From Corallococcus exiguus (GTDB lineage Bacteria; Myxococcota; Myxococcia; Myxococcales; Myxococcaceae), in the NCBI RefSeq assembly GCF_965139275.1, contig NZ_CBCSLE010000005.1: a DNA stretch of 64,000 nt, one strand, 5' to 3'. The notes beneath the pieces are model-generated. The model was not told the DNA's origin. It made no database searches and was given only the letters and a program-made list of their open reading frames with translations. The first letter of the stretch is position 1. Every line of letters starts with the position of its first letter. Made by a program: the position numbers and the translations under genes. Positions 9,328-33,561 of the stretch are shown here, in pieces.

Positions 9328-10532
9328 GGGACGGACGCTTCACGTTGAAGGGCTCGCCCGAGGTGGAGGCGAGGATCTCCCAGGTGGTGTCAGAAGCGGC
9401 GGCCGTCATCCACGGGCACGTGCGCCCGGACGAGCTGCGGACGCTGGCCCTCATTGGCGGCTACGGGCGCGGTGAGGGAGGAGTGGAGAAGAGGGACGGC
9501 GTCGAACGGCCGCACAACAACCTCGACTTCCTCCTGGTGCTGGAGCGAGCCCCGCGAGAGGGGCTGAAGGCGCGGCTGGACCTGGTGCTGGAGCCGCTGC
9601 GCGAGCGGCACGGGCTGGGGTTGGACCTGGGCGTGACGACGGTGCGGGCGCTGCGAAGGTCCCCGTGTCAGGTCATCTGGTACGACATGCGGTTCGGCCA
9701 CAAGACGGTGGCGGGGGATGCGTCGTTCCTTCCGGGGCTCGAGCACTTCACGCGAGAAGCCATCCCACCCGACGACGTGCGGAACCTGGCGGTGAACCGG
9801 GGCACGCTGCTGATCATCAACCAGGTGCTGCGGGACCAGGGCGCACTGGGCGAGGACGCGCGCCGCACGATCCTCCGGCACACGGCGAAGGCCATCATCG
9901 GCTACGGCGACGCGCTGCTGTACTTCCTGGGTGCATACGACTGGAGCTACGCGGAGAAGCGGCGGCGGATGGCGCTGCGGCACGACGTGCCGGCCGGATT
10001 CCGCAAGCTGTACGACGAGGCGAGCGCCTTCCGCTTGGAGCCGGACTACGCGCGCTTCGCCCCAAGCGAGCTGGGGCCCTGGATGGACGAGGGGAGGGCG
10101 AGGCTCGCGGAGGTGCACCTTACGTGTGAGGCCGCGAGGCTATCGGTGCCCGGGCTGAAGTGGTCCGGATACGCGGAGCGGGCGTTGAAGCACTCCCTCA
10201 AGGAGGGCGGCCTCCAACCGAAGGTCTGGCTGCGTCGGGTGCGCAACGGCGTGAGGTTCCGGCCAAAGGCTTCACCCGAGCTGGGGCTCCGAGCGCGGTT
10301 GGGGCTAAGGCTCGGAGGGCCGCGAGGGGGGTTGGCGGCGGCGTTCCCCTTCGTGGCGTTCGAGGTGGGCGGGCCCCAGGACGCCGAGTTCGCGCGGCAG
10401 CTGCTGCGAGCCGCGAGCCGCGAGCCAGCGGACTTGCGGCGCGCCTATCTGAGGTACTGGGGCGAGTCGGGAGACCCCAACTTCGCGCACGTGGCGAGGA
10501 AGCTCGGCCTGCGCCTGGGGGACCAATCATGA
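9324..10532 (+). CDS. Hypothetical protein, possible nucleotidyltransferase fold
   Basis: GTG 9324 overlaps the TGA of the previous gene (GTGA). LIGGYGRGEGGVEKRDGVERPHNNLDFLLV resembles a pol-beta-type NTase GS...D.D motif. No confident family. Confidence 0.45.
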   Translation: MRDGRFTLKGSPEVEARISQVVSEAAAVIHGHVRPDELRTLALIGGYGRGEGGVEKRDGVERPHNNLDFLLVLERAPREGLKARLDLVLEPLRERHGLGLDLGVTTVRALRRSPCQVIWYDMRFGHKTVAGDASFLPGLEHFTREAIPPDDVRNLAVNRGTLLIINQVLRDQGALGEDARRTILRHTAKAIIGYGDALLYFLGAYDWSYAEKRRRMALRHDVPAGFRKLYDEASAFRLEPDYARFAPSELGPWMDEGRARLAEVHLTCEAARLSVPGLKWSGYAERALKHSLKEGGLQPKVWLRRVRNGVRFRPKASPELGLRARLGLRLGGPRGGLAAAFPFVAFEVGGPQDAEFARQLLRAASREPADLRRAYLRYWGESGDPNFAHVARKLGLRLGDQS

Positions 10533-11422
10533 GTCGCAAGGTCACTGTCATCATGCGCTCGAAGGACTCTGCCTGGGTCATAGGCCAGGCGCTCTCCGGC
10601 CTGTTCTCGCAGGCGCGCAAGGACTTCGAGTTGCTCGTGGTGGACTCGGGCTCCAGGGACGCGACGCTGGACATCGTCTCGCGCTTCCCCTGCCAACTGA
10701 TCCGCATCGACGCCGGGGCGTACTTCCCAGGCGTGGTGCTCAACCGGGCCATCCGCGAAGCGCAAGGCGACATCATCGTCTTCCAGAACTCCGACGTGGT
10801 GCCGCTGACGCCGCAGGCGCTGGACCGGTTGCTGGAGCCCATTGAGCGCACCGATGCGGACGCGACCTTCGCGCGGCAGCTGCCGAGGCCGGAAGCGCAC
10901 ACGTGGGTGCGAAGGGATTACGAGGTCGCGTTCCCGGAGCAGGGAACTCCGCCGCCGTGGATGACGTACTCGCTGCCGTTCGCGGCGATGACGCGGGATG
11001 CGTGGCTCAAGCACCCGTTCTACGAGGACGCGTGGGGCTCCGAGGACACGGAGTGGGGACACCGGGCGCGAGGCGACGGGCTCCGGGTGCGCTACGTGCC
11101 GGACGCGTGGGTGATGCACTCGCACAACTACACGCTGAAACAGTTGTACGGGCGCCGCTTCATCGAAGGAGAGGCGGATGCCTTCATCCGGGAGGAGCCC
11201 GCGTCGCTGACGGGACTGGCCCGGAAGCTGGGCGCGTCATGGGCAAGGGATGCGGTCGTGCACATCCGGGCGCGCGACGCCGCGGGCCTGGCGCTCTCCG
11301 TTCCCCGGAGGCTCGTGTACCACTGGGCTTATTGGAAGGGACACCAGTGGGGAGAGCAGCGCCTGCGGAGCGGGAACGCGGACGCGAGCGTCGGTCAGCG
11401 GGTGGTGCTGCGGAGGCAGTGA
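10529..11422 (+). CDS. Glycosyltransferase family 2
   Basis: ATG 10529 overlaps the upstream stop (ATGA). MSRKVTVIMRSKDSAWVIGQALSGL...ELLVVDSGSRDATLDIV is the GT2 N-terminal DxD-containing fold. Confidence 0.8.
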   Translation: MSRKVTVIMRSKDSAWVIGQALSGLFSQARKDFELLVVDSGSRDATLDIVSRFPCQLIRIDAGAYFPGVVLNRAIREAQGDIIVFQNSDVVPLTPQALDRLLEPIERTDADATFARQLPRPEAHTWVRRDYEVAFPEQGTPPPWMTYSLPFAAMTRDAWLKHPFYEDAWGSEDTEWGHRARGDGLRVRYVPDAWVMHSHNYTLKQLYGRRFIEGEADAFIREEPASLTGLARKLGASWARDAVVHIRARDAAGLALSVPRRLVYHWAYWKGHQWGEQRLRSGNADASVGQRVVLRRQ

Positions 11423-12600: not shown

Positions 12601-12770
12601 GGGCAGGCCCTTCAGCTTGCAGGGGACATGCCTCCCCGCGAGCTGACTCCTTGCCCATGCACCGCCCGGATGTCTCGCATTGAGACGTCTCGGAATGGGA
12701 ATGGGGAAGGAGGGACGCCGCGGGTGGGGCGCGGAGTGTCTGGTCCATGAATTGCGTCTTGCCCGTGCAT

Positions 12771-14024
12771 ATGACGGCTGTGGAGCGCCCCGGGCGGCGC
12801 GTGGTGCATGTCCTTCGCAAGTACGACCCGCGTGAGTGGGGCGGGACGGAGACGCACGTCGTGGAGGTAACGCGGCGGCTGGCGGCGTTGGGCTGGGGGC
12901 CGGAGGTGCACGCACCGGCGGGGCCCTCGGAGCCGGATCGAGCGCTGGGCCCCGAGGTGCCGCTGCTGCGCTATCAGGCCTTCTGTCCGTTCCTGGGCCC
13001 GGCCGAGAAGCGAAGGGCGCTCGTCGCCAATGCCGGCAACCTGGCCACCTTCGATGAGCCGCTCCGGCTCGCGAAGGACGCGGGCCTCGCCCTGGCGCAC
13101 CTGCACACGGCGGGGCGCATCGGCGGAGCCGTGCGGACGGCCATGCGTCTCACGAGGCGCCCCTATGTCATCTCCGTGCATGGGCCACTGCTGGCGCGGA
13201 AGTCCTGGCTGGAGCAGGACACCGCGCGGCGGCTGTCAGGGCTCATGGATATGGGCCAGCCCATTGGATGGCTATTCGGCGCCCGGCGCGTCATCCAGGA
13301 CGCCGCGCGAGTCATCACCTTCAACGAAGAGGAGCGTCGCGCCCTGTCCGAGGTGGTCGGGGACCGGGCCGTGAGATTGGATCAGGGGGTCGACCTGAAG
13401 CGGATGGCCACGGGAAGCGCGCAGCGGGCGAGAGAGCGTTGGCCCCGGTTCGCCCGCGCACGTGTGGTCACCCTGGTGGGGCGCATCTCTCCGCAGAAGA
13501 ACCAGGTGCTAGCGGTGAGGGCCTTCGCCGTGGGGGCGCCCGAGGATCATCACCTGGTCCTCGCCGGCGCGACGGTGGACGCAGCCTATGGAGAACAGCT
13601 GAAGCAAGAGATCCAGGCACTGGGGCTCGGCGAGCGCGTCCATGTCCTCGGCAACCTGGACGCGGCCCGCGAGGTTCCGGATCTGCTGGCGCTCTCCAGG
13701 CTCGTGCTGGTGCCCTCGGCGCACGAGGCCTTCGGACTGGCGGTGTTGGAGGCGTGGGCGGCGGGGAGGCCGGCATTGCTGGCGGTGCACTCGGGCCTGG
13801 CGGATCTCGCCGGAGCCATTGGTCCGGAAGGGCTGAGCGTGCCGACCCTGGAGGTGGAGGACTGGGCCCAGGCGCTGCGGCAGGCACTCGCCAACCCCGT
13901 GCGGCTGGACGTGGCGGCGCGAGCGGGTGCCGCGCAGGTGCGTCAGCGCTTCAGCTGGGACGTGGTGGCGAGCAAGGTCGCGGAGCTCTACCAGGCGGTC
14001 CTCGAGGAAGGAGCGCGGCGATGA
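12771..14024 (+). CDS. Glycosyltransferase family 1
   Basis: MTAVERPGRRVVHVLRKYDPREWGGTETHV... GT4 N-domain and C-terminal HEAFGLAVLEAWAAGRPAL motif. Alternative ATG at 12747. Divergent from the GT at 11395-12600 with a 170-bp spacer. Confidence 0.8.
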   Translation: MTAVERPGRRVVHVLRKYDPREWGGTETHVVEVTRRLAALGWGPEVHAPAGPSEPDRALGPEVPLLRYQAFCPFLGPAEKRRALVANAGNLATFDEPLRLAKDAGLALAHLHTAGRIGGAVRTAMRLTRRPYVISVHGPLLARKSWLEQDTARRLSGLMDMGQPIGWLFGARRVIQDAARVITFNEEERRALSEVVGDRAVRLDQGVDLKRMATGSAQRARERWPRFARARVVTLVGRISPQKNQVLAVRAFAVGAPEDHHLVLAGATVDAAYGEQLKQEIQALGLGERVHVLGNLDAAREVPDLLALSRLVLVPSAHEAFGLAVLEAWAAGRPALLAVHSGLADLAGAIGPEGLSVPTLEVEDWAQALRQALANPVRLDVAARAGAAQVRQRFSWDVVASKVAELYQAVLEEGARR

Positions 14025-24405: not shown

Positions 24406-24981
24406 TCACATGTGTCCCACGTGCTTCCTGCTGCCTGTTCCTCCATGCAGTTATCGTGCTCCATGCTTCACGGCCTCACCGCCGGCTGATTGTCCCTGCT
24501 GTCTCATGCTGGGACGTCAGGCTGTCTCGGATTGAGAGTCCATCGAGGATGGCTCGCTCCCTCAAGAGGGTCGCCCGTCTTGGCTGTCCAGGGTCGAAAT
24601 GAGGGGCCGTCCCCGAAACGGACGAGCAGGACTCGAAGGCCCGGATTGAGCTGCCGCTGGCTGGAACGGCAATTGCTCGGTCAGGCTCGTGCCTTCTTTC
24701 ATGGGTCCCTTCAAGGATGGAGCGAGGGAGCCCGTGAAGATGCGGGTCCTCTTCACCGCCTGGTTTCCGCGCGAGGAGCGACGGTGGCTGGGCGAGTTCC
24801 TCTCACCGGAGCGCTTCGCGTGCGCCTACGTGGGCCTGGAGGAGCCGGTTGACGCGACCCGGAAGCGCCCGCCCGCTCAGAAGACGCACCAGGACAAGTC
24901 GAAGGAGCCGCTGCTGCGGACGCTGAGGCTGCTCGGCAGGATTCTGAAGGCTCAGCTCAGTCCGACCGCGAGGGTAGGGGG

Positions 24982-26841
24982 GTGCAAGGAATGGCTCCAC
25001 TCTCGTGCCCACCTGCCCCGGACCTGGCGGAAATGAGACTTCTCTGGCCAGGCTCGTGGTTTCCCCCCGTCCAGCCGCTTGGGCCGCGGCGTGATGACGA
25101 CAATCGCCTGCGCTTCGTCGTCCGTGTGGTGGTCATTGCCTCCCTTGCCCTGGCCTTCGCGCGCGGCGTCGTCTTCAAGCGTGTCGAAACAGGTGACGAG
25201 GGCGTCAATGGCACGATGGCCCTCAACATGTGCCGTTCGCTGGCGCTCGTGGTGCGGCCCTCGTACATCCCTGGTGGCTCGGAGGATTGGGTCGGCTTCG
25301 ATCTGCCAGGCATCGGCAACACTCCATTTCACTCGGTGCTCCTCGCACTCGGAGGCTGTCCCCTGGGCGGCCAGCCCGAAGCCATGGGGCTCGTCTCATT
25401 CGCGGCGCTGGTCGCCACCCTCTGCTTCACCTACCGGCTCGTCGCCCTGTGGGAGCGTCGCGCGGCGCTCCTGACGACGCTCCTGCTCGCGCTCTCTCCT
25501 ACCGTCCTGTGGCAATTCCGGCTGATGGAGGCCGAGCCTGTCCTCGTGGCGTGGGGCATGGCGGGCACGTACTGGATTGCGCGAGGGGAGCTCACCGGGA
25601 GGAATTGGCACTCCCTGCTGGGTGGCGCATGCCTCGGCCTTGGCTTCTTGACGAAGCTGTGGCTCGTCACCCCCTTCGTGCTGGCTTCGCTAGGGCTCCT
25701 TGCCATCGTGCGTCTCCAGCGGCGTCAATTGGCGCTGGTTCCTGTCGCCTGCCTCACCGTCGGCTTTCTTGCCACGGCGTCCCTCCACCTCGCTTTCGTT
25801 GCTCTGCGGTCACCCACGGATGTCGCCCTCTGGCTCACCCAGGTCTACTTCGCACCCTTCCTGGGGCAGAGCATCGGAGGGTCGAAGCTGGCTGGGGCGG
25901 GCGTGCCCACGGAATGGAGTCATCCCTTCTGGTACTACCCGGCGATCCTCTACCGGGAGCATTTCTTCCTCTGCCCCCTCCTTCTGGCTGCGCTCCCCGC
26001 CTTGAAGCGGCGTGCGCCGACCGCGGCCGGACTCTTCGGCGCCATCGGCTTCGGGCTCGCAAGCCTGGTTCCCCTCTCGCTCCCCGCCATCAAGGAGTCG
26101 CTCTACATCCTGGGCGTCTTGCCATTCCTCTATGGCCTGGCCGGGCTTGGTGCTTCGGCGCTCCTTGCCGGGGAGGGCACCCTCGAACCACGGGGGGCAT
26201 CGGGCCGTCGAGCCCTCAGGGTCGCGGGCGTCTTCTCGGCCGCGGCGGTGCTCCTCATCGGGGCGGCTCATGCTCGGGGGCTGAAGCGCGATGACATCAC
26301 GCCTGTCTATGTTGGCGCGCACGCGCTCGGGGTGGGGGGCGCCTGGCTCCTGGCGTATGCGGCGGCTCGCCTCGAGCGCGCGCGAGCGACGGCGCTCATC
26401 GGTGGCCTCTCCGCGCTGGCACTGGCTGGTTTTGGGGCGTACGAGCTCACGGCGCCTCAACCACCGTACAAGGAGATCGCGGAGATCCTTCGCCCCTATT
26501 TGGAACCACTGCCGCCCGGGCATGAGAGCTTCATCTCGCCCCGGTACAAGGTTCTTCAGCTCTACCTGTTTCGCAATGGTCGCTACTGGCAGTCCTTCTA
26601 CACGGAGCTCCGGCCGGAGACGCTCGTGGCGAGCATCGCGTCCGGCGAGTACTGCGCCTTCGTCTTCGGCCCGGAGGAGCGTGAAAACCCTCGGCTCGTG
26701 CAGGTGGAGCGGGACATCGCGCTGCAGGCCCTGGACTTGAGCGCGGAGTTGCCGGAGAGCGTACGTGGGGGGTTCCGCGTCTTCGTGAACCGAGCATGCG
26801 TGCAGGAGGGCGCGAAGGGATTACGCCACGCGGAGGGATGA
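24982..26841 (+). CDS. GT-C fold membrane glycosyltransferase (ArnT/PMT, GT39/GT83-like)
   Basis: Multi-TM protein with an acidic DE motif in the first extracytoplasmic loop (VFKRVETGDEGVNGTMALNM) and LGLGFLTKLWLVTPFVL. Large C-terminal soluble domain. Start could be ATG 24982 or 25033. Confidence 0.6.
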   Translation: MQGMAPLSCPPAPDLAEMRLLWPGSWFPPVQPLGPRRDDDNRLRFVVRVVVIASLALAFARGVVFKRVETGDEGVNGTMALNMCRSLALVVRPSYIPGGSEDWVGFDLPGIGNTPFHSVLLALGGCPLGGQPEAMGLVSFAALVATLCFTYRLVALWERRAALLTTLLLALSPTVLWQFRLMEAEPVLVAWGMAGTYWIARGELTGRNWHSLLGGACLGLGFLTKLWLVTPFVLASLGLLAIVRLQRRQLALVPVACLTVGFLATASLHLAFVALRSPTDVALWLTQVYFAPFLGQSIGGSKLAGAGVPTEWSHPFWYYPAILYREHFFLCPLLLAALPALKRRAPTAAGLFGAIGFGLASLVPLSLPAIKESLYILGVLPFLYGLAGLGASALLAGEGTLEPRGASGRRALRVAGVFSAAAVLLIGAAHARGLKRDDITPVYVGAHALGVGGAWLLAYAAARLERARATALIGGLSALALAGFGAYELTAPQPPYKEIAEILRPYLEPLPPGHESFISPRYKVLQLYLFRNGRYWQSFYTELRPETLVASIASGEYCAFVFGPEERENPRLVQVERDIALQALDLSAELPESVRGGFRVFVNRACVQEGAKGLRHAEG

Positions 26842-27100
26842 CGCCCGCATTCAACGCCGGCTGTCTTCAACGCGCCTTTCCCACCCACGCCACATGACCA
26901 GCGATCGCTATAGCTGCTCCATGACTGCTCCTGTTGAGTCATGACATGACGTCGAAGCACCACGGCCCGTTCTGGAAAGTCCAGAGCGGGCCGCGGTAGG
27001 TCAAGGGCTGGAAGGTGGCGGCGTGGTTGGCGCTCTGTCCAGCGTCGTCAACGTTCCGGCCGGACCTTCAGTCCGCGCGGGCCTCCGCGCTGCTCAGGCC

Positions 27101-27213
27101 CCGGTGCTTCACCCTGCTACAGGTGTTCGCCTTGCTCCGGAATTGGTGTTCGGCTTGTCCCGGAGCCGGTGTTCGGCTTGCTCCGGAATCGGTGATCGGG
27201 ATCGTCCGGAGCA
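27101..27213. repeat. Tandem array of about 4.5 x 23-bp repeats (consensus GGTGTTCGGCTTGCTCCGGAATC)
   Basis: Units at 27122-27144, 27145-27167, 27168-27190 and 27191-27213, plus a degenerate unit 27101-27121. Lies about 200 bp upstream of the lipoprotein gene at 27420. Confidence 0.6.
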
Positions 27214-27419
27214 CGCATCCACCCTGAAGGGATGACGTTGAACCCAGAGGTGTCGCGGGCGCGTGACAGGTGGGCAGAGCCAGGGCGCTTCCTGGGGCAG
27301 GGAGAATTTCATGCGAGGGTGGCCCGGATGCGCGTTAGCCTGGAGTTCGCTTTACCAGCCACATCCCGCGCAACCATCGTTGAGATCCCTGCGCCTGCTC
27401 GGCGCGGAGAGGGAGAACC

Positions 27420-28484
27420 ATGCAGCGCTTTGTCCTCTTGGGTCTTGCACTGCTCACGGCCTGTGCAACGCCTGTCCATCAGGCCGCATCGCCTGTCCAG
27501 CCCAGCCCGGTCTACGTGTTCGAAGGCGTGGAGGTGTTCGGCTCACGCAAGGTGCCCAAGGGCAAGCTGCTGGAGGTCATTGGGATGCCTGCGCCCGGCG
27601 CGCGCTTCAACCTCGAGAAGGGGGAGTTCACGCCGTACCTCATGGAGAGCAAGCCGCGGCTCCTGGCGGCCTACAAGTTCGCGTTCTGCAGGTACTCGAT
27701 GGTGGCCTACCCGCCGACGCGGACGTTCCGGGTGACGGTGGATCTGGTCGATGCCGGAGATGAGTGGCGCATGCCCTTTTCACCCGCGCCGCAGGGCGAT
27801 ATCCCGGAGCCGGAGGGCCTCCTCACGGCCTGGGATGAATACCAGACGGCCTACTGGAAGCTGAGCAGGGAAGGGGCTGTCCCCGAGTACGGCAAGAGCA
27901 AGTGCCATGCCCTCAACTGCCATGGAGGATTCGACCACCCCGAGCTCGCGCCGCTGGAGCAGCGCTTCATGGATGGTGTTCCCCGCAATCTCGACACGCT
28001 GGTGCGGGTGCTGCGTGAGGATCGCAACGACTCCAAGCGAATGGCCACGGTCATGCTCCTGCCCTACATCAACTCACGCGAGCAACTGGTGAAGCTCGTT
28101 CTCCCGTCGGTGCGCGACCCCTACGAGGGTGTGCGCAACGAGGCGCTGCGCCTGCTGGGAACGATGCAGGAGGGACAGCCGCGGGTCATCATCCCGCTGG
28201 AGCCCGTGCTCGAAGCGCTCTGGTACCCGCTCGAGACCGACCGCAACAAGGCAGCCTGGGCGCTCGTGCACATCGTGGAAACCGAAGGCGCCGCCCAACA
28301 GCGGCAGATTCTCGACAAGGCGGGCGCGGTGCTGGTGGAGATGGCTGGAATGCAGCAGAAGACCGATGCCGAGCCTGCTCGCAAGGTGCTCGCCATCCTG
28401 GCGGGGCGGGACCTGGGTGACGAGCCGGCGGCCTGGCACCGTTGGGTCGAGCAGACGCTCGGCTCGAACAGTGCCCATCGGTGA
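27420..28484 (+). CDS. Hypothetical lipoprotein
   Basis: Lipobox LALLTACATP. 354 aa, no recognisable catalytic motifs. Alpha-helical repeat-like C-terminal half. Confidence 0.55.
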   Translation: MQRFVLLGLALLTACATPVHQAASPVQPSPVYVFEGVEVFGSRKVPKGKLLEVIGMPAPGARFNLEKGEFTPYLMESKPRLLAAYKFAFCRYSMVAYPPTRTFRVTVDLVDAGDEWRMPFSPAPQGDIPEPEGLLTAWDEYQTAYWKLSREGAVPEYGKSKCHALNCHGGFDHPELAPLEQRFMDGVPRNLDTLVRVLREDRNDSKRMATVMLLPYINSREQLVKLVLPSVRDPYEGVRNEALRLLGTMQEGQPRVIIPLEPVLEALWYPLETDRNKAAWALVHIVETEGAAQQRQILDKAGAVLVEMAGMQQKTDAEPARKVLAILAGRDLGDEPAAWHRWVEQTLGSNSAHR

Positions 28485-28536
28485 CGAAGATGCTGCGAAG
28501 GCGGCAGTACGGGGGGCGTAACCCCTGGAACGCATT

Positions 28537-28602
28537 GGCGGTAGGGCACGGGAATCGAACTCGCCAGGGACTGCTCTCGCAGCCCCTCACCGGTTTTGAA
28601 GC
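28537..28602 (-). repeat. 66-bp partial copy of the tRNA-Sec 3' end (att-type direct repeat)
   Basis: 64/66 nt identical to 33463-33528 (anticodon loop through CCA). No matching 5' acceptor strand upstream, so it is not a functional tRNA. Confidence 0.7.
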
Positions 28603-28749
28603 CCCGCCACCCCGATCCGCGAGGTGCCCGGGGGGATTGAGGGTCGGCCGGTTTCCCTCTGGCGCGGGGTGGACCGCGAGTCCGTAAAGGTCCACCCGCG
28701 TCCGTTCATCTTGGGTACAGCTTGGGTACGCGGGTAGGGACGGCAGGGG

Positions 28750-29358
28750 TCAGGGGGCATTGGCTGCACCGGGGCCGGTCACGTCCGTGAACTTCGTGCC
28801 GGTGATGACCGCGCGCTCCAGGGCCTCCTTGATCTCCTCGGACACGATCAAGGCCACGGTCCAGCCCCAGGTGCGGAACACCTTGGCGCCTTCCACCTTC
28901 GCCGGGTCGATGCGCATCCCGGACACGGAGGAGTACGTACCCACCTTTTCGGGCATCCCGTCCTCCGGGGTCCAGTAACGCACCTCCTCGCACGCTGCAT
29001 CGTCGATGCACTTCACCAGCCGGGTGGCGTTGAGGATGAAGTGCTGAGCGGGCTGGGAGTCGATCTCCACCGGGATGAGCTGCACGTCGTCGGGTGCCAG
29101 CTCGGTGAAGAAGGAGGCCACCCGGGCGTGGACGACGGGGATGCTGAATGCCGCGTGGGAATAGTCGAGCGGTTTGCCGGAGATCTTGATGGGGATCCTG
29201 ATGCGCTCGTCCGAGTGAGCCCGCTGCCCGATCCTGAACTGCCACGGGTCATCGAGCTTGCGCCCTTCCTGATCGAGAGGATGCCCCAGCTCCCACCGGC
29301 CGGAGAGGTACACATCATCGCTCAACTTGAAGAACCGCGTCGGCATGAAGTCGTCCAT
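28750..29358 (-). CDS. Hypothetical protein, candidate (second) immunity protein of the toxin module
   Basis: 202 aa, cytoplasmic. Last gene of the three-gene minus-strand operon, 10 bp after the preceding ORF. Family uncertain; possibly resembles DUF1629/Imm11-type immunity proteins, from memory only. Confidence 0.45.
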   Translation of the reverse strand: MDDFMPTRFFKLSDDVYLSGRWELGHPLDQEGRKLDDPWQFRIGQRAHSDERIRIPIKISGKPLDYSHAAFSIPVVHARVASFFTELAPDDVQLIPVEIDSQPAQHFILNATRLVKCIDDAACEEVRYWTPEDGMPEKVGTYSSVSGMRIDPAKVEGAKVFRTWGWTVALIVSEEIKEALERAVITGTKFTDVTGPGAANAP

Positions 29359-29368
29359 CCGAGGCGGG

Positions 29369-29719
29369 CTACTCTGGATCGAGCGCCCAGGTTCCTTCTT
29401 CCCAGCGCTTCAATGCCTGCCCGGCTTCAAAGGGAACGAGCCCCTTGCCCTTGGCGGCTTCCTCCAGAACCGCCTTCGCTTCGGCCGTCCGGTAGCGGAG
29501 CAGATGGGCGGCGGCCATGACACGCACATCCATGCGCTCATGCTTGAGCAGGACGAGGAGGGCATCACGTCCTGCGTTTCCATGGGCCAGGAGCGTATCG
29601 ACGGCGGCACCGTACTTCCTGGCGTGCTTGTTCCCGGTCTTGGCATCTCCCCGGAAGATGGCCTCGGTCTGTGCCGCCACGTTCAGGGCGAACTGCTCGA
29701 CCAATCTCTCCAACGTCAT
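29369..29719 (-). CDS. Small helical hypothetical protein, candidate cognate immunity protein
   Basis: 116-117 aa ORF. Its ATG (29717-29719) shares one nt with the toxin TGA stop (29719-29721), the usual toxin-immunity coupling. Confidence 0.45.
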   Translation of the reverse strand: MTLERLVEQFALNVAAQTEAIFRGDAKTGNKHARKYGAAVDTLLAHGNAGRDALLVLLKHERMDVRVMAAAHLLRYRTAEAKAVLEEAAKGKGLVPFEAGQALKRWEEGTWALDPE

Positions 29720-31074
29720 CACCAGACCCCCTTCGCCACGTTCTCCATGGCCAGCAGCCCGAAGTCACGCTGGGCCTCGTAGGACTGCGTGCTCAACCAT
29801 TGCCTCACGGTCAAGGTGCTGGAGCCCGTGATACTACGCCGGATCGACGAGTAGAGCGCGCTGACGTCGGTGTGCAGGATCTTGTCCAGTGGGATGAGGT
29901 TCTCGGTGTTGTGGAGGGCCTGGGGGCCGAAGCGCTTCACGTTGCCCGGGGTTTGCTCGACGATGTGGTGCCACTCCTTGTTCTTGCCCGCCGGGCCCAT
30001 GGCCTTCTTGAAACCACTGAACGAGCTCCAGGCCCTGTAGCCCAAGGGACGCGCCTTGGCGGAGGCGCTGCCGCCCGTGGCTTTGGCCGCCATGGCCACC
30101 GCGCCGGGCGCGAGGGCGATGGTGACGGTCTCGGCGCTCACGGCCACCGTTCCCACGTCCGCGACCGCCGCGAGCCTGATGCCCATTTGCGCTTCAGCCT
30201 GGACCGCCGCCTGCGCGGCGCCTGGGAGCATTGGCACCTTCGACCCCAGCCCCGCCGCCGTGTTCCCAATGGCGGCCGTGGCCAACATGGCGAACGCGCG
30301 CGCCGCGTTGCGGCCCATGACCTTGCCGTAGCGCTCACCCGCCTCGCGGAGTTCGTCAAACGTGGTGGCCCGCTCCGCCTCCTCCACCAGCTGCTTGAAG
30401 CCCAAGATGAGGCTCCAGAACGTATCGACCCCGACGTAGGCAATGAGGGAGGCGGTCATCACGGCGGCCACGCCCTTCGAGAAAGGCTCGGGCACCGCGA
30501 GCAAGATGCAGTACGTGGTCCACGTCCAAAGAACCGCAGCCATCATGGCCTGGGGATCAGCCATCTCTTTGAAGGCGTCCATCATCTCGTCCCGCACGAC
30601 GCCTTGGGCCAAGGCCATGGCCAGGGCGTAACGGCCATCCCCGGTGACAGTAGGGCTCTCCACCAGGAGGCGCAGGCAATCGCCGGGATTGCTCGTTCGC
30701 TCGCACCAGCGCAGGTATGCGCGCGTCAGATCCACCTCTGTCGAGGGGAGATCACCGTCCAGGTGTTCGCCCGGTCCCAGCGGGATGACACGGTGGCTGC
30801 GCGGCTCGTACAGGTATGAACCGCTGCGCGGATCCATCTCGAAAAACCGCCGGGCCGTTTCCTGGGGATGAGTGGACGGACGTACGTTCCGGGCGAGCGC
30901 TTCTACGGCTTCAACGAAGTCGTCTTCGTCCAGCGCCACCGGGGCGGTATCGCCGCTGCGTGGGGTAAGGACGATGGACTCGCCGTGGCCCGTGTGCAGG
31001 CGCACGGACTTCGTGGTGCCGCTGCATCCAGCCAGCATCACGAGCAGTAGGAGAATTGACCATCGTGGCAGCAT
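29719..31074 (-). CDS. Lipoprotein polymorphic toxin with C-terminal WHH-type (HNH/EndoVII superfamily) nuclease domain (SitA-like architecture)
   Basis: Start at ATG 31072-31074 gives signal MLPRWSILLLLVMLAGCSG (lipobox). Long Ala-rich helical central region. C-terminus KEWHHIVEQTPGNVKRFGPQALHNTENLIPLDKILH carries a W-H-H...N...H pattern as in WHH nuclease toxins. Confidence 0.6.
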   Translation of the reverse strand: MLPRWSILLLLVMLAGCSGTTKSVRLHTGHGESIVLTPRSGDTAPVALDEDDFVEAVEALARNVRPSTHPQETARRFFEMDPRSGSYLYEPRSHRVIPLGPGEHLDGDLPSTEVDLTRAYLRWCERTSNPGDCLRLLVESPTVTGDGRYALAMALAQGVVRDEMMDAFKEMADPQAMMAAVLWTWTTYCILLAVPEPFSKGVAAVMTASLIAYVGVDTFWSLILGFKQLVEEAERATTFDELREAGERYGKVMGRNAARAFAMLATAAIGNTAAGLGSKVPMLPGAAQAAVQAEAQMGIRLAAVADVGTVAVSAETVTIALAPGAVAMAAKATGGSASAKARPLGYRAWSSFSGFKKAMGPAGKNKEWHHIVEQTPGNVKRFGPQALHNTENLIPLDKILHTDVSALYSSIRRSITGSSTLTVRQWLSTQSYEAQRDFGLLAMENVAKGVW

Positions 31075-31291
31075 GCGGAGCCCTCCTGGCGCGGGCCCCC
31101 TTCGCTCGGGAGCGTATCGGCGGCGCAAGGCCTAGTAATACCAGATAGAGCTGACAGATGCTCCGGGCTGACGCCGTCTGTGGTGGAGCGTGTGCGGCCG
31201 ACGGCGTGCCTTCTGGAACGTCACGCCGAGAGAGAGCGTGCGCTGTCAGCCCGGTCACCACAGCTTGAGCGTGAAAGGCCCCACCGAGCAC

Positions 31292-31585
31292 CGGACGGTT
31301 ACCTTCGTCTCCGACGCGCGCCTGCCCTTGGACAACAACCGCTCCGAGGCAGCGCTGCGCAAAGCGGCGCTGGGCCGGAAGAACTTCCTCTTCGTCGGCC
31401 ATGAGGCCGCGGGCGAAAACCTCGCTGGCCTCTACGCCCTCGTCGCCACCTGCGAAGCCAACGGCGTCAATCCCGAGGCCTACCTCGCCGACATGCTGCT
31501 GCGCGTCCAGACGCACCCGCTTGCGCGCGTCGGCGAGCCGCTGCCGCACGAATGGGAGCGGCTTCGCGCCGCCGACGCTTCCTGA
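31292..31585 (+). pseudogene. IS66-family transposase (TnpC) C-terminal fragment
   Basis: VTFVSDARLPLDNNRSEAALRKAALGRKNFLFVGHEAAGENLAGLYALVATCEANGVNPEAYLADMLLRVQTHP...EPLPHEW matches the conserved C-terminal about 100 aa of IS66 TnpC (LDNN..E...R.....RKN.LF.GS..GG). No N-terminal about 400 aa and no inverted repeats found. Confidence 0.7.
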
Positions 31586-31779
31586 CGCCACCTCACCACG
31601 GCATTTCTCCCCGCTGGGACTCGCGGCGCCCGCCGAGCACGGCCAGGGCCTGCCTTCAAGCTCGCCAACACGTCATTGGCCGGACAGTTACGATGGATAT
31701 AACATTTAGCTTGTTCTGGGGCCCCTCTCTGCGGTGGCCCGAACAGCGAGGGGACCAAGGGGCCGGTCTTGCCGAAGTG

Positions 31780-33378
31780 CTATTCACCAACAGGGGTGTC
31801 GATTGGTGGAACACCTTCCTTCTGTTGGGGGACCTGTGCAGAGGCGTTTGCCGGCTGTGCGGCAAGGTGAGTTGGAGTCAAGGAAGGGCTTGCATGAAGC
31901 ATAGCTCTTAAGTCGTTTTCGATTTCAGAGAGTATTTTGAGATGAAATATGGCGAACTGGTCGGGATTGAGTCCTTGAGGAGAGGCTGCGCCCGAGAGTC
32001 TCTTGAAGACGTCCGCATGCTTCCTTCGTTTGACCGCTACTTTGTTGCCCTTTCCATGATCGACGTCGTGTCTGATTTCTGTGCGAAGCGTGTTTACATC
32101 TATGAAGGAAGAAGGTGGCGACTCGCCGAGTCGCTCCCCAGGGCCTTCCCACAAAAGAAAGTAAAGGTTGTCGATCAGCTTTTCATATTCTGCGACGTCC
32201 GAAATCAAAACTCCAAGGCTTCTCTGTGCCTTCAGGGTTTTGTTTGTTGGCTTGAAGAGGTCTTTGCCGGTGGCGGATTGAGATTTTGTGTTTATCTGCT
32301 CAATCAGTTCTGCGATTTGTTCTGCCTTGGCGAGGACGTCGGCCTTAGGAGTCGTTTTGGCGATGGCTGTGGCGCCAAAAGCACTGGCCAGTTCAGGGTT
32401 TTTGGTGAGGAGCTTTTTGGTGAGGATGCGCTGTCGGGCCTCTGGGCCGGATTTGATATTGGCGTTGATTGTCTTCTGGAATTCGAGGTAGTCGCGATCG
32501 GTGGCCTTGACCCCTAGTTCTACTTGCTTGGAAAGCTCTTCTGTGAAGGCTTCGGCGAAGCTGGAGAACACCGTCTCGTGTCCAACGGCCTTTCCTGCTG
32601 AGACGAGCGTTGCCGCAAGGGTGAAGATTGATTGAACTATGGTCCGGTTGTGTAGTGCTGGGGAAGGGGCGGGAAAGGATTTGTCGAGAAAGGCTAGTGT
32701 TGATGTGATTCTTTTGGCGACCGCTGATTTTCTTGAGAATGTCGAGTTGTTTTCGAATATCAGCTTGAGGTCGTCAAAGCGAAGGCCTGTTGTGATCCCC
32801 TTGATTTCGATTGCGCAGGCCTTGGCGGCAATGTCGAGATGTGAGTGGCGGTAGTCCTCGACTTGGCATTTTGACTTGAAAAAACTGTGCTTTGATACGT
32901 CGAGTGCGAAGTCGCGCAATTCGCTGTGAATGGCGTTTAGTCTCTCGCTGCTCGTGAGCGGAAGTCCGAGTTGGAGTCTTTGAAAGAACTCCTTGAGGTC
33001 TGATTCAATGGCCCCGGTGATTACGTCGTACTCGATCTCGAAGTCATCGAATTTGTCTGCTATCGCAGTTGGGAGTTCTTTGTAGAGTTTCCCTCCCATT
33101 TGAGTGGGAGAGTCCATAGGGATCTCAAGCTCATTTCCAAAGAAGCGCCAGATGGCCTGAAGGCGCTGCTGCCCGTCGACCACTTCGTACTGGTCGCTGT
33201 CGTTGGACTTCTTGACAAAGTAGAATTTTGGCAGCTTCCATCCGCGTAGGATGCTGTCGATAAGATTCTGCTGAAGCTTTTTGTCCCAGACTTTCCCGCG
33301 TTGCCAATCTGGAATCTCATAGCGACCGCGCCGTGCATAAATCTTGTCGAGAGACCTCTTCTCTGATCTCATTTCCAT
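31780..33378 (-). CDS. DUF262 (ParB/GmrS-like N-terminal NTPase domain) protein with uncharacterised C-terminal domain; candidate defence gene
   Basis: N-terminus YEIPDWQRGKVWDKKLQQNLIDSILRGWKLPKFYF...VVDGQQRL is the DUF262 signature. Gene GC is about 50% versus about 70% for flanking DNA. Confidence 0.75.
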   Translation of the reverse strand: MEMRSEKRSLDKIYARRGRYEIPDWQRGKVWDKKLQQNLIDSILRGWKLPKFYFVKKSNDSDQYEVVDGQQRLQAIWRFFGNELEIPMDSPTQMGGKLYKELPTAIADKFDDFEIEYDVITGAIESDLKEFFQRLQLGLPLTSSERLNAIHSELRDFALDVSKHSFFKSKCQVEDYRHSHLDIAAKACAIEIKGITTGLRFDDLKLIFENNSTFSRKSAVAKRITSTLAFLDKSFPAPSPALHNRTIVQSIFTLAATLVSAGKAVGHETVFSSFAEAFTEELSKQVELGVKATDRDYLEFQKTINANIKSGPEARQRILTKKLLTKNPELASAFGATAIAKTTPKADVLAKAEQIAELIEQINTKSQSATGKDLFKPTNKTLKAQRSLGVLISDVAEYEKLIDNLYFLLWEGPGERLGESPPSSFIDVNTLRTEIRHDVDHGKGNKVAVKRRKHADVFKRLSGAASPQGLNPDQFAIFHLKILSEIENDLRAMLHASPSLTPTHLAAQPANASAQVPQQKEGVPPIDTPVGE

Positions 33379-33462
33379 GCTCGTGACCTCCTAAAAACGC
33401 TGTTGTGAGTAGAGCGTCCCGCAACCCGTTCAGGGCCGCGTCAGAAAAACCCAAGGAAAACA

Positions 33463-33561
33463 TGGCGGTAGGGCACGGGAATCGAACTCGCCAGGGACTG
33501 CTCTCGCAGCCCCTCATTGGTTTTGAAGACCAAGCCGGCCACCAGGTCCGGAGGCCCTACC
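33463..33561 (-). tRNA. selC: tRNA-Sec (selC-like; anticodon UCA)
   Basis: rc sequence GGTAGGGC-C-...-TTGGT-CTTCAAA-ACCAA-[GGGCTGC-GAGA-GCAGTCC variable hairpin]-..GTTCGATTCCC..-GCCCTACC-G-CCA. 8-bp acceptor stem, anticodon loop CUUCAAA, long extra arm and about 99 nt length, all as in bacterial selC. D-arm and T-stem pairing are imperfect in my hand fold. Confidence 0.6.

Follow-up and report, generated by a model that had tools for sequence, protein, structure and literature searches.

The selenocysteine tRNA (tRNA-Sec) gene, selC, is a textbook target of genomic islands in enterobacteria, among them the locus of enterocyte effacement (LEE), pathogenicity island I (PAI-I) of uropathogenic Escherichia coli (UPEC) 536, Shigella island 2 (SHI-2) and Salmonella pathogenicity island 3 (SPI-3). 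Such islands insert at the 3' end of the tRNA gene, which is regenerated, leave a partial tRNA repeat at their far end and carry strain-variable cargo, and their integrase is often decayed. Small elements built of an integrase, an AlpA/helix-turn-helix (HTH) regulator and a primase, such as P4-like satellites and similar islands, carry anti-phage cargo beside the integrase. In Myxococcus, sitAI loci are found on mobile elements including the Mx-alpha units, and SitA5 is one of six described SitA families (PMC5562445, PMC8546572, PMC10047993). TraA/TraB-dependent transfer of SitA5 alleles and killing of non-immune kin have been described (PMC8546572), and loss of a sitAI-type element has been proposed to be lethal among toxin-carrying siblings (PMC5562445). 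Here we analysed 64,000 nucleotides of contig NZ_CBCSLE010000005.1 of Corallococcus exiguus (the window), in which a tRNA-Sec gene and a displaced copy of its 3' end enclose a short island carrying a sitA5 toxin gene. We consider it likely, with a probability of about 0.85, that the 4.9 kb between 28536 and 33528 are what decay has left of a site-specific integrative element.

The island resembles those at enterobacterial selC in its insertion at the 3' end of tRNA-Sec, the regenerated tRNA, the partial repeat at the far end, the variable cargo and the decayed integrase. It differs from them in its host, a member of the Myxococcota, in its tiny size (4.9 kb) and in carrying a kin-discrimination toxin rather than virulence genes. 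Compared with Mx-alpha, a prophage-like unit of ~100 kb, it is a small tRNA-Sec-anchored islet in Corallococcus.

ARAGORN called a single tRNA in the window, a tRNA-SeC with anticodon tca, and this gene scored 68.9 bits against the Rfam tRNA-Sec model (RF01852; gathering score 47). Direct reading showed that the acceptor stem has 8 bp (GGTAGGGC/GCCCTACC), that the extra arm is long and that the terminal GCCA is encoded, in agreement with the first-pass annotation of this DNA, which had described a selC-like gene with these features. Positions 34-99 of the tRNA are repeated in the same orientation at 28601-28536, with 64 of 66 nt identical (96.97%); the annotation had reported this identity correctly and had placed the copy one base off, at 28537-28602. 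A repeat search extended the match to 69 nt at 96% (28536-28604 versus 33463-33531, with a spacing of 4927 nt), and a 25-mer of the repeat occurred exactly twice in the window, as against 0 expected from 100 shuffles. The displaced copy opens with the start of the anticodon loop and lacks the 5' half. ARAGORN did not call the copy, and its Rfam score of 33.5 bits fell under the gathering score, which bears out the view that it is not a gene.

The sequence flanking this copy on the outside was informative as well. A 112-nt BLAST match (92.9% identity) aligned window 28493-28604, comprising fragment and trailer, to positions 11099-11209 of the C. coralloides KYC2213 locus (L001), where the counterpart is the 3' part of tRNA-Sec together with the sequence directly downstream of the intact gene. 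Because 28493-28535 matches the L001 sequence just 3' of tRNA-Sec, the displaced fragment keeps its native trailer.

Over 21780-43378 the window agrees at 100% with contig JAAAPK010000002.1 of assembly GCA_009909105.1. We gathered related loci in three ways, through the methyltransferase gene 5' of the tRNA, through SitA5 homologues and through integrase homologues. The comparison set consisted of 12 Corallococcus tRNA-Sec loci and one metagenome contig (L027); loci referred to below include, besides L001, those of C. llansteffanensis (L005), C. interemptor (L017), Corallococcus sp. BB11-1 (L029), C. exiguus GCA_013248915.1 (L022) and C. coralloides CP034669 (L032), and a locus of Archangium lipolyticum (L031). 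Synteny with the window stopped exactly at the tRNA 3' end (33463) in nine loci (L001-L004, L006, L018, L020, L022 and L032) and ~50 nt beyond it in L005, L017 and L029. The content downstream of tRNA-Sec differed in all 12 related loci, so that the adverse case envisaged at the outset, identical 4.9-kb content in every relative, did not arise. The methyltransferase gene had initially been taken as the far flank; it lies 5' of tRNA-Sec and belongs to the conserved host flank, the far flank being formed by a HEAT-repeat gene.

Both ends of the island recur in relatives that possess an integrase. The junction stretch next to the tRNA (33400-33462) leads into a 381-aa tyrosine recombinase (Pfam Phage_integrase) in L017 and L005, followed there by variable cargo and by genes for an HTH_17 protein and a primase-like DUF3854/DUF5906 protein. 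The arm next to the displaced copy (attR arm) recurs in L022 and, in degenerate form, in L002. In L029, tRNA-Sec, the junction, a frameshifted integrase copy, four small open reading frames (ORFs) and the arm with a 67-nt tRNA fragment all lie within 3.9 kb, and arm plus fragment are 87% identical to window 28538-28728. Because L029 links junction, integrase and arm, the island of the window is bounded by the termini of a single family of elements that bear an integrase. The attL/attR footprint of integration proposed in the first pass is thus upheld by the variable downstream content, the native trailer and the ends held in common with integrase-bearing relatives.

The arms also carry a recurring motif. 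In the window, GTACCCAAG was found only twice, both times in the attR arm (+ strand, 28710-28718 and 28721-28729, spaced 11 nt), with a chance expectation of ~0.2 per strand in 64 kb. L029, L017, L005 and L028 each have it once, in the attL arm at a distance of ~70 nt from the end of the tRNA, with no further copy elsewhere in the locus. These copies are candidate arm-type integrase sites. The homology of the window to integrase-bearing elements ends at ~33400-33414, short of the attL-arm motif. The coordinates of all features are collected in Table 1.

Table 1. Features of the tRNA-Sec island and its ends, ordered by position in the window.
Feature	Position	Strand	Basis and remarks
Native tRNA-Sec trailer beside the displaced fragment	28493..28535	-	43 nt, AATGCGTTCCAGGGGTTACGCCCC trailer; match to C. 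coralloides KYC2213 (L001)
Displaced 3' 66 nt of tRNA-Sec, attR core, not a gene	28536..28601	-	Spans anticodon loop to CCA
attR arm, ~125 nt	28602..28730	-	nhmmer and BLAST: 87% identity to L029 13633-13818; conserved in L029, L022, L002
Imm11-family immunity gene, extra or orphan module	28750..29358	-	Pfam PF07791, E=2.9e-12
Putative sitI5 immunity gene, DUF2019/HEAT-like	29369..29722	-	Pfam PF09450, 26.8 bits (cutoff 23.3); 4-nt overlap with sitA5 stop codon
sitA5, lipoprotein polymorphic toxin of 451 aa	29719..31074	-	Lipobox LAGC, SitA5 escort domain, C-terminal H-H...N...N...H motif
Truncated IS66: last ~90 transposase codons and presumed right end	31287..31692	+	ORF 31190-31585; right boundary read from ...CAGTTAC and GC drop
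DUF262/GmrSD_N protein, 532 aa	31780..33378	-	Pfam PF03235, E=2e-20; GC ~0.51
Integrase-proximal junction, ~50-60 nt	33400..33462	-	BLAST: ~90% from 33411/33414 to L017, L029, L028; ~79% to L005
Intact tRNA-Sec gene, attL	33463..33561	-	Anticodon UCA; last 66 nt (33463-33528) are one direct-repeat copy; ARAGORN, Rfam, alignment with 12 Corallococcus tRNA-Sec genes

In the model that we propose, a tyrosine integrase would have recombined the attP site of the element with the tRNA-Sec gene. The attP would carry a copy of the tRNA from anticodon loop to CCA, and this copy would now complete the functional tRNA-Sec gene (attL), with the original 3' 66 nt of the host and their native trailer displaced by 4.9 kb (attR). 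A crossover in the anticodon loop is suggested, because the identity block starts exactly there. The classification of Williams (2002) is said to recognise an anticodon-loop class of tRNA integration sites; the identity block found here, which takes in the whole 7-nt anticodon loop, runs on to CCA and amounts to 66 nt with the long extra arm, would agree with that class, the crossover being read in our case from the extent of the block.

The island has lost its integrase gene, together with any module for excision or replication. Overlapping ORFs were resolved by GC content at third codon positions (GC3), and five ORFs fill the interval between tRNA-Sec and the displaced copy, leaving no space for a further gene. 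No Pfam integrase match was obtained among the ORFs of the window, tblastn with the integrase of the relatives returned nothing in the 64 kb, and neither an excisionase nor a replication gene is present among the five genes of the island, in line with the initial impression of a decayed or immobilised element. The integrase expected of a tRNA-anchored island is missing because this island is decayed, and relatives with the same ends have one. Without an integrase and with the attL arm site lost, the island would be immobilised.

We then looked at the integrase family itself. Tyrosine recombinases normally have TG(L/M)R..E at the Arg-I region. Alignment of the tRNA-Sec-linked integrases (L017 11272-12417 and L005 11301-12446) showed an invariant 'TGMH..E..R' motif, and by this reading His appears to occupy the Arg-I position; R304, H336 and Y346 are invariant in the family. 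The family is commonly found in Corallococcus and its relatives, and all named homologues come from myxobacteria. There were zero tblastn matches in the phage collection, zero phmmer matches among PDB sequences and no relatives in viral contigs, and metagenome contigs yielded one relative, the 2-kb L027, which likewise has tRNA-Sec and then integrase. The results point to an uncharacterised family that is so far restricted to myxobacteria. Because neither the phage collection nor PDB provided a match, the associated integrase is not demonstrably P4-like. Around the more distant homologues from Melittangium and Archangium (46-47% identity), no tRNA gene is present within 10 kb. L031 contains, immediately upstream of an integrase homologue of 46% identity and on the strand opposite to it, 88 nt (9820-9906) with 78% identity to the tRNA-Sec 3' part; this stretch was called neither by ARAGORN nor by Rfam. 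The same locus has polymorphic-toxin-like lipoprotein and immunity genes upstream, and a sub-threshold Rfam match to group II intron D1-D4 at 1198-1323 (42.3 bits versus a gathering score of 49).

The sitA5-sitI5 operon and the Imm11 gene remain at the attR-proximal end of the island. The translated toxin begins with a lipoprotein signal that includes the lipobox Cys (MLPRWSILLLLVMLAGC), and residues 9-274 matched the NCBIfam SitA5_escort model (NF050093) with 388.4 bits (cutoff 160). Homologues were 64-92% identical, many of them named 'SitA5 family polymorphic toxin', and by profile and homology the assignment to the SitA5 family is secure. The C-terminal domain has invariant W-H-H...N...N...H residues and a sub-threshold match to HNH_2 (E=0.11), and a fold search with this domain gave no significant match. 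HNH_2 has been reported for one SitA5 allele (PMC8546572). The gene had been annotated initially as a lipoprotein nuclease toxin; the lipoprotein toxin stands, as a member of the SitA5 family, and a nuclease activity of the C-terminal domain is weakly suggested by the H-H...N...N...H motif and the sub-threshold HNH match.

The two small genes noted downstream of the toxin were indeed found there and encode DUF2019 and Imm11 proteins. A DUF2019 gene also directly follows sitA5 in L020, L021 and L022. In the window it occupies the sitI position, in an operon with sitA5, and its role in immunity is putative. The arrangement is like that of the Myxococcus sitAI loci in its lipoprotein toxin, family-specific escort, polymorphic C-terminal domain and downstream immunity gene in an operon, and in lying on horizontally acquired DNA. 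Unlike those loci, the island has no sitB and has an extra Imm11 gene after sitI5. tRNA-Sec is unmentioned as a site for sitAI in the three papers on these systems, none of which uses the word 'integrase'; 'tRNA' is absent from two of them and confined to tRNase assays in the third (PMC5562445, PMC8546572, PMC10047993).

The tRNA-proximal part of the island is of a different character. GC content is 0.50-0.55 at ~31700-33400, 0.63-0.71 in the rest of the island and 0.65-0.73 in the flanks, and GC3 is 0.59 for the DUF262 gene and 0.75-0.89, which is host-like, for the toxin cassette. The DUF262 block is the sole compositionally foreign part of the island; the first-pass view that the intervening DNA is atypical, and that the DUF262 gene is low in GC, holds for this block and not for the toxin cassette. 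We read the DUF262/GmrSD_N gene as horizontally acquired. The GmrSD_N match (PF03235) covers residues 15-135 of the protein, and the remaining ~400 residues had zero Pfam matches even at E<=10. A GmrSD type IV restriction enzyme would also carry DUF1524, a His-Me nuclease domain, at its C terminus; lacking this domain, the protein was not assigned to GmrSD. The PADLOC NsnA model matched residues 3-197 only, no NsnA partner genes are present at the locus, where the neighbours are the IS66 fragment and the tRNA, and judged by these models the gene is not a complete NsnA-containing system.

The DUF262 gene sits where the relatives carry the integrase gene, and its GGAGG ribosome-binding site and start codon come immediately after the junction homology stops. 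In L017, L005 and L028 the order is integrase, variable gene, HTH_17 and DUF3854 (Toprim-like)/DUF5906 primase-helicase-like protein, as in the integrase-AlpA/HTH-primase elements. The variable gene beside the integrase encodes a GTPase, a T5orf172 protein, a Swt1-like HEPN protein or an HNH protein, and several of these integrase-adjacent genes are of anti-phage type. The DUF262 gene is found at the variable-gene position and plausibly belongs to this cargo slot. Unlike the small integrase-AlpA/HTH-primase elements, the window retains zero backbone genes, and no capsid-hijacking or helper-phage functions were seen.

Between the DUF262 gene and sitA5 lies the IS66 transposase remnant that the first pass had recognised. 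It is a C-terminal fragment: the Pfam models DDE_Tnp_IS66 and IS66_C matched residues 34-120 of ORF 31190-31585, and NCBIfam transpos_IS66 matched in profile positions 314-386 of 387. A complete IS66, with whole transposase, accessory genes and both terminal inverted repeats, is not present at this position. Homology of the sitA5 upstream region to L021 stops at 31286, and the Pfam IS66 match begins at ~31289; mapping of the right end by homology gave no informative match.

Cassettes of sitA5 and sitI5 adjoin a tRNA-Sec fragment in three genomes, those of the window, L022 and C. coralloides CP034669 (L021/L032). The last of these has an integrase-less island of 11.8 kb, which in L032 extends from tRNA-Sec (884-982) to a 46-nt tRNA fragment (12732-12777). 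Its cargo comprises two Ser/Thr kinases, two HTH regulators and a DUF2381 protein, and at its far end stands an array of two to three sitA5/sitI5 cassettes, with a 5' fragment of sitA5 and an orphan sitI5 among them. The kinase module is ~94% identical to, and contiguous with, the integrase-primase module in L028/L005. Stitched across strains, the loci suggest a full element of ~19 kb, with integrase, cargo, HTH, primase, kinases, sitA5 array and attR in this order.

Several observations weigh against the proposed explanation. An integrase and a sitA5 cassette between a single attL/attR pair were not found in any one genome examined, and the link between the two relies on overlapping loci of different strains (L005/L028 with L021/L032, ~94%). 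The exact empty site, with tRNA-Sec, trailer and HEAT gene in succession, was found in none of the genomes examined; of the comparison with relatives that the first pass had recommended, the variability of the downstream content was seen everywhere and the unoccupied site was not. The HEAT flank gene did not lead to an empty site, its best homologues (87-88%) being in unrelated contexts with homology that stops at the stop codon; the HEAT gene itself is accessory and patchily distributed. L022 does not share the tRNA-proximal half, and the island may have been pieced together in several events or by cargo replacement.

A further difficulty is posed by the tRNA allele. The anticodon stem of the intact gene (33524-33540) is TTGGT/ACCAA, and that of the displaced copy (28597-28604 compared) is CCGGT/ACCGG, a form also present in all other aligned Corallococcus tRNA-Sec genes except L004, which has the TTGGT/ACCAA variant. 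The two forms differ by a double compensatory change. A simple crossover in the anticodon loop could explain ACCAA as coming from attP, but not the TT of the 5' strand. We considered a recombination tract as the source of the TT/AA allele and rejected it: all the way to the tRNA, the upstream host flank has its nearest match in L022 (98%), which means that a long recombination tract is absent at tRNA-Sec. A later compensatory mutation or a short conversion patch are the remaining possibilities.

The comparison with L022, the nearest other genome (98.2% identity across the host flank), bears most directly on how the island was assembled. It shares sitA5, sitI5, the arm and attR with the window; its junction and tRNA-proximal part are different, with a DDE transposase ORF (rve-like, read by eye) where the window has DUF262 and IS66, and the Imm11 gene is missing. 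Because L022 shares only the half from sitA5 to attR and lacks Imm11, the island would be a mosaic of IS activity, deletion and probably cargo replacement. One specific version of this history, to which we would give a little less than an even chance, is a composite island: an older sitA5 island like that of L022 would have had its tRNA-proximal part replaced, either by a second integration of a DUF262-carrying integrase element or by homologous exchange between the conserved ends, and an IS66-associated deletion would have taken out the integrase along with any att site in the interior. It is exactly the IS66 fragment that separates the two halves, with its truncated end abutting the conserved sitA5 upstream region at 31286/31289, and the step in GC3 between DUF262 gene and toxin cassette fits such a join. 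However, no internal tRNA fragment or second arm is present between DUF262 and sitA5. L002, examined as a tandem array of two islands, proved to be a single island, since its degenerate attR is followed by a native glycosyltransferase flank (95% to L020). A composite origin still requires site-specific integration at tRNA-Sec and refines the proposed integration model.

The island could alternatively still be mobile in trans, as a non-autonomous islet served by the integrase and excisionase of a sister element elsewhere in the genome. Both core repeats survive almost whole (64/66), the attR arm keeps both GTACCCAAG motifs, and integrases of the family are widespread in these bacteria. We regard this as improbable, as only ~50-60 nt of the attL arm are left beside the tRNA, short of the point at which relatives have GTACCCAAG (~70 nt), and no integrase of the family is encoded in the window. 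That the repeat arose by local duplication or an IS-mediated rearrangement (for example by IS66), with unrelated genes gathered between the copies and no integrase involved, is most improbable of all: an IS66 fragment does lie within the interval and the window has no integrase, but the copy spans exactly the anticodon loop to CCA, as an attP/attB identity block would, the inner non-tRNA flanks of both copies are conserved in other species and linked to a tyrosine integrase in L029, L017 and L005, the outer side of the displaced copy is native trailer, and the distances between the IS66 fragment and the two copies are ~2.6 kb and 1.8 kb.

Some features of the surrounding DNA were recorded in addition. 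A 4-kb segment just past attR (24530-28535) is missing in L022. It contains genes for a PMT_2-type glycosyltransferase (24982-26841) and for the HEAT-repeat protein of the far flank (27420-28484), whose nearest homologues (87%) are in unrelated contexts beside an IS66 fragment. A candidate for the degenerate remains of an earlier tRNA fragment, at the distal edge of this segment (~24530), had a local alignment score of 13, which 1214 of 1276 background windows equalled or exceeded, and was discarded; there is no tRNA fragment at that edge. Upstream of the HEAT-repeat gene, an intergenic tandem repeat at 27122-27212 has ~3.4-4 copies of a 23-nt unit, GGTGTTCGGCTTGCTCCGGAATC. GC3 is 0.78-0.90 on the island side of tRNA-Sec (1-28500) and mostly 0.86-0.97 on the other side (33600-64000); from this consistently lower GC3, the wider region downstream of the tRNA may be accessory genome.

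tRNA-anchored islands, selC as an integration target and the presence of sitAI on mobile DNA are already established, and current concepts are unchanged by our findings. The island is a comparatively documented case of sitAI cassettes travelling on a small tRNA-Sec-targeting element and staying after loss of the integrase. It would probably be retained because losing SitA5/SitI5 exposes the cell to sibling toxin delivered via outer-membrane exchange. In Corallococcus, tRNA-Sec is a hypervariable hot spot, and an integrase family with defined att ends may provide a genetic tool. We also put forward, as a tentative and on balance rather unlikely proposal, that a tRNA-Sec-specific element family of Corallococcus and related myxobacteria, apparently with His at Arg-I, acts as a shuttle with two slots, one for anti-phage genes by the integrase and one for stacked sitA5/sitI5 cassettes by attR, of which, once the backbone had decayed, the toxin-immunity cassette would hold a remnant fixed by addiction. 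If this is true, tRNA-Sec would be a hot spot at which social identity and phage defence are exchanged together.

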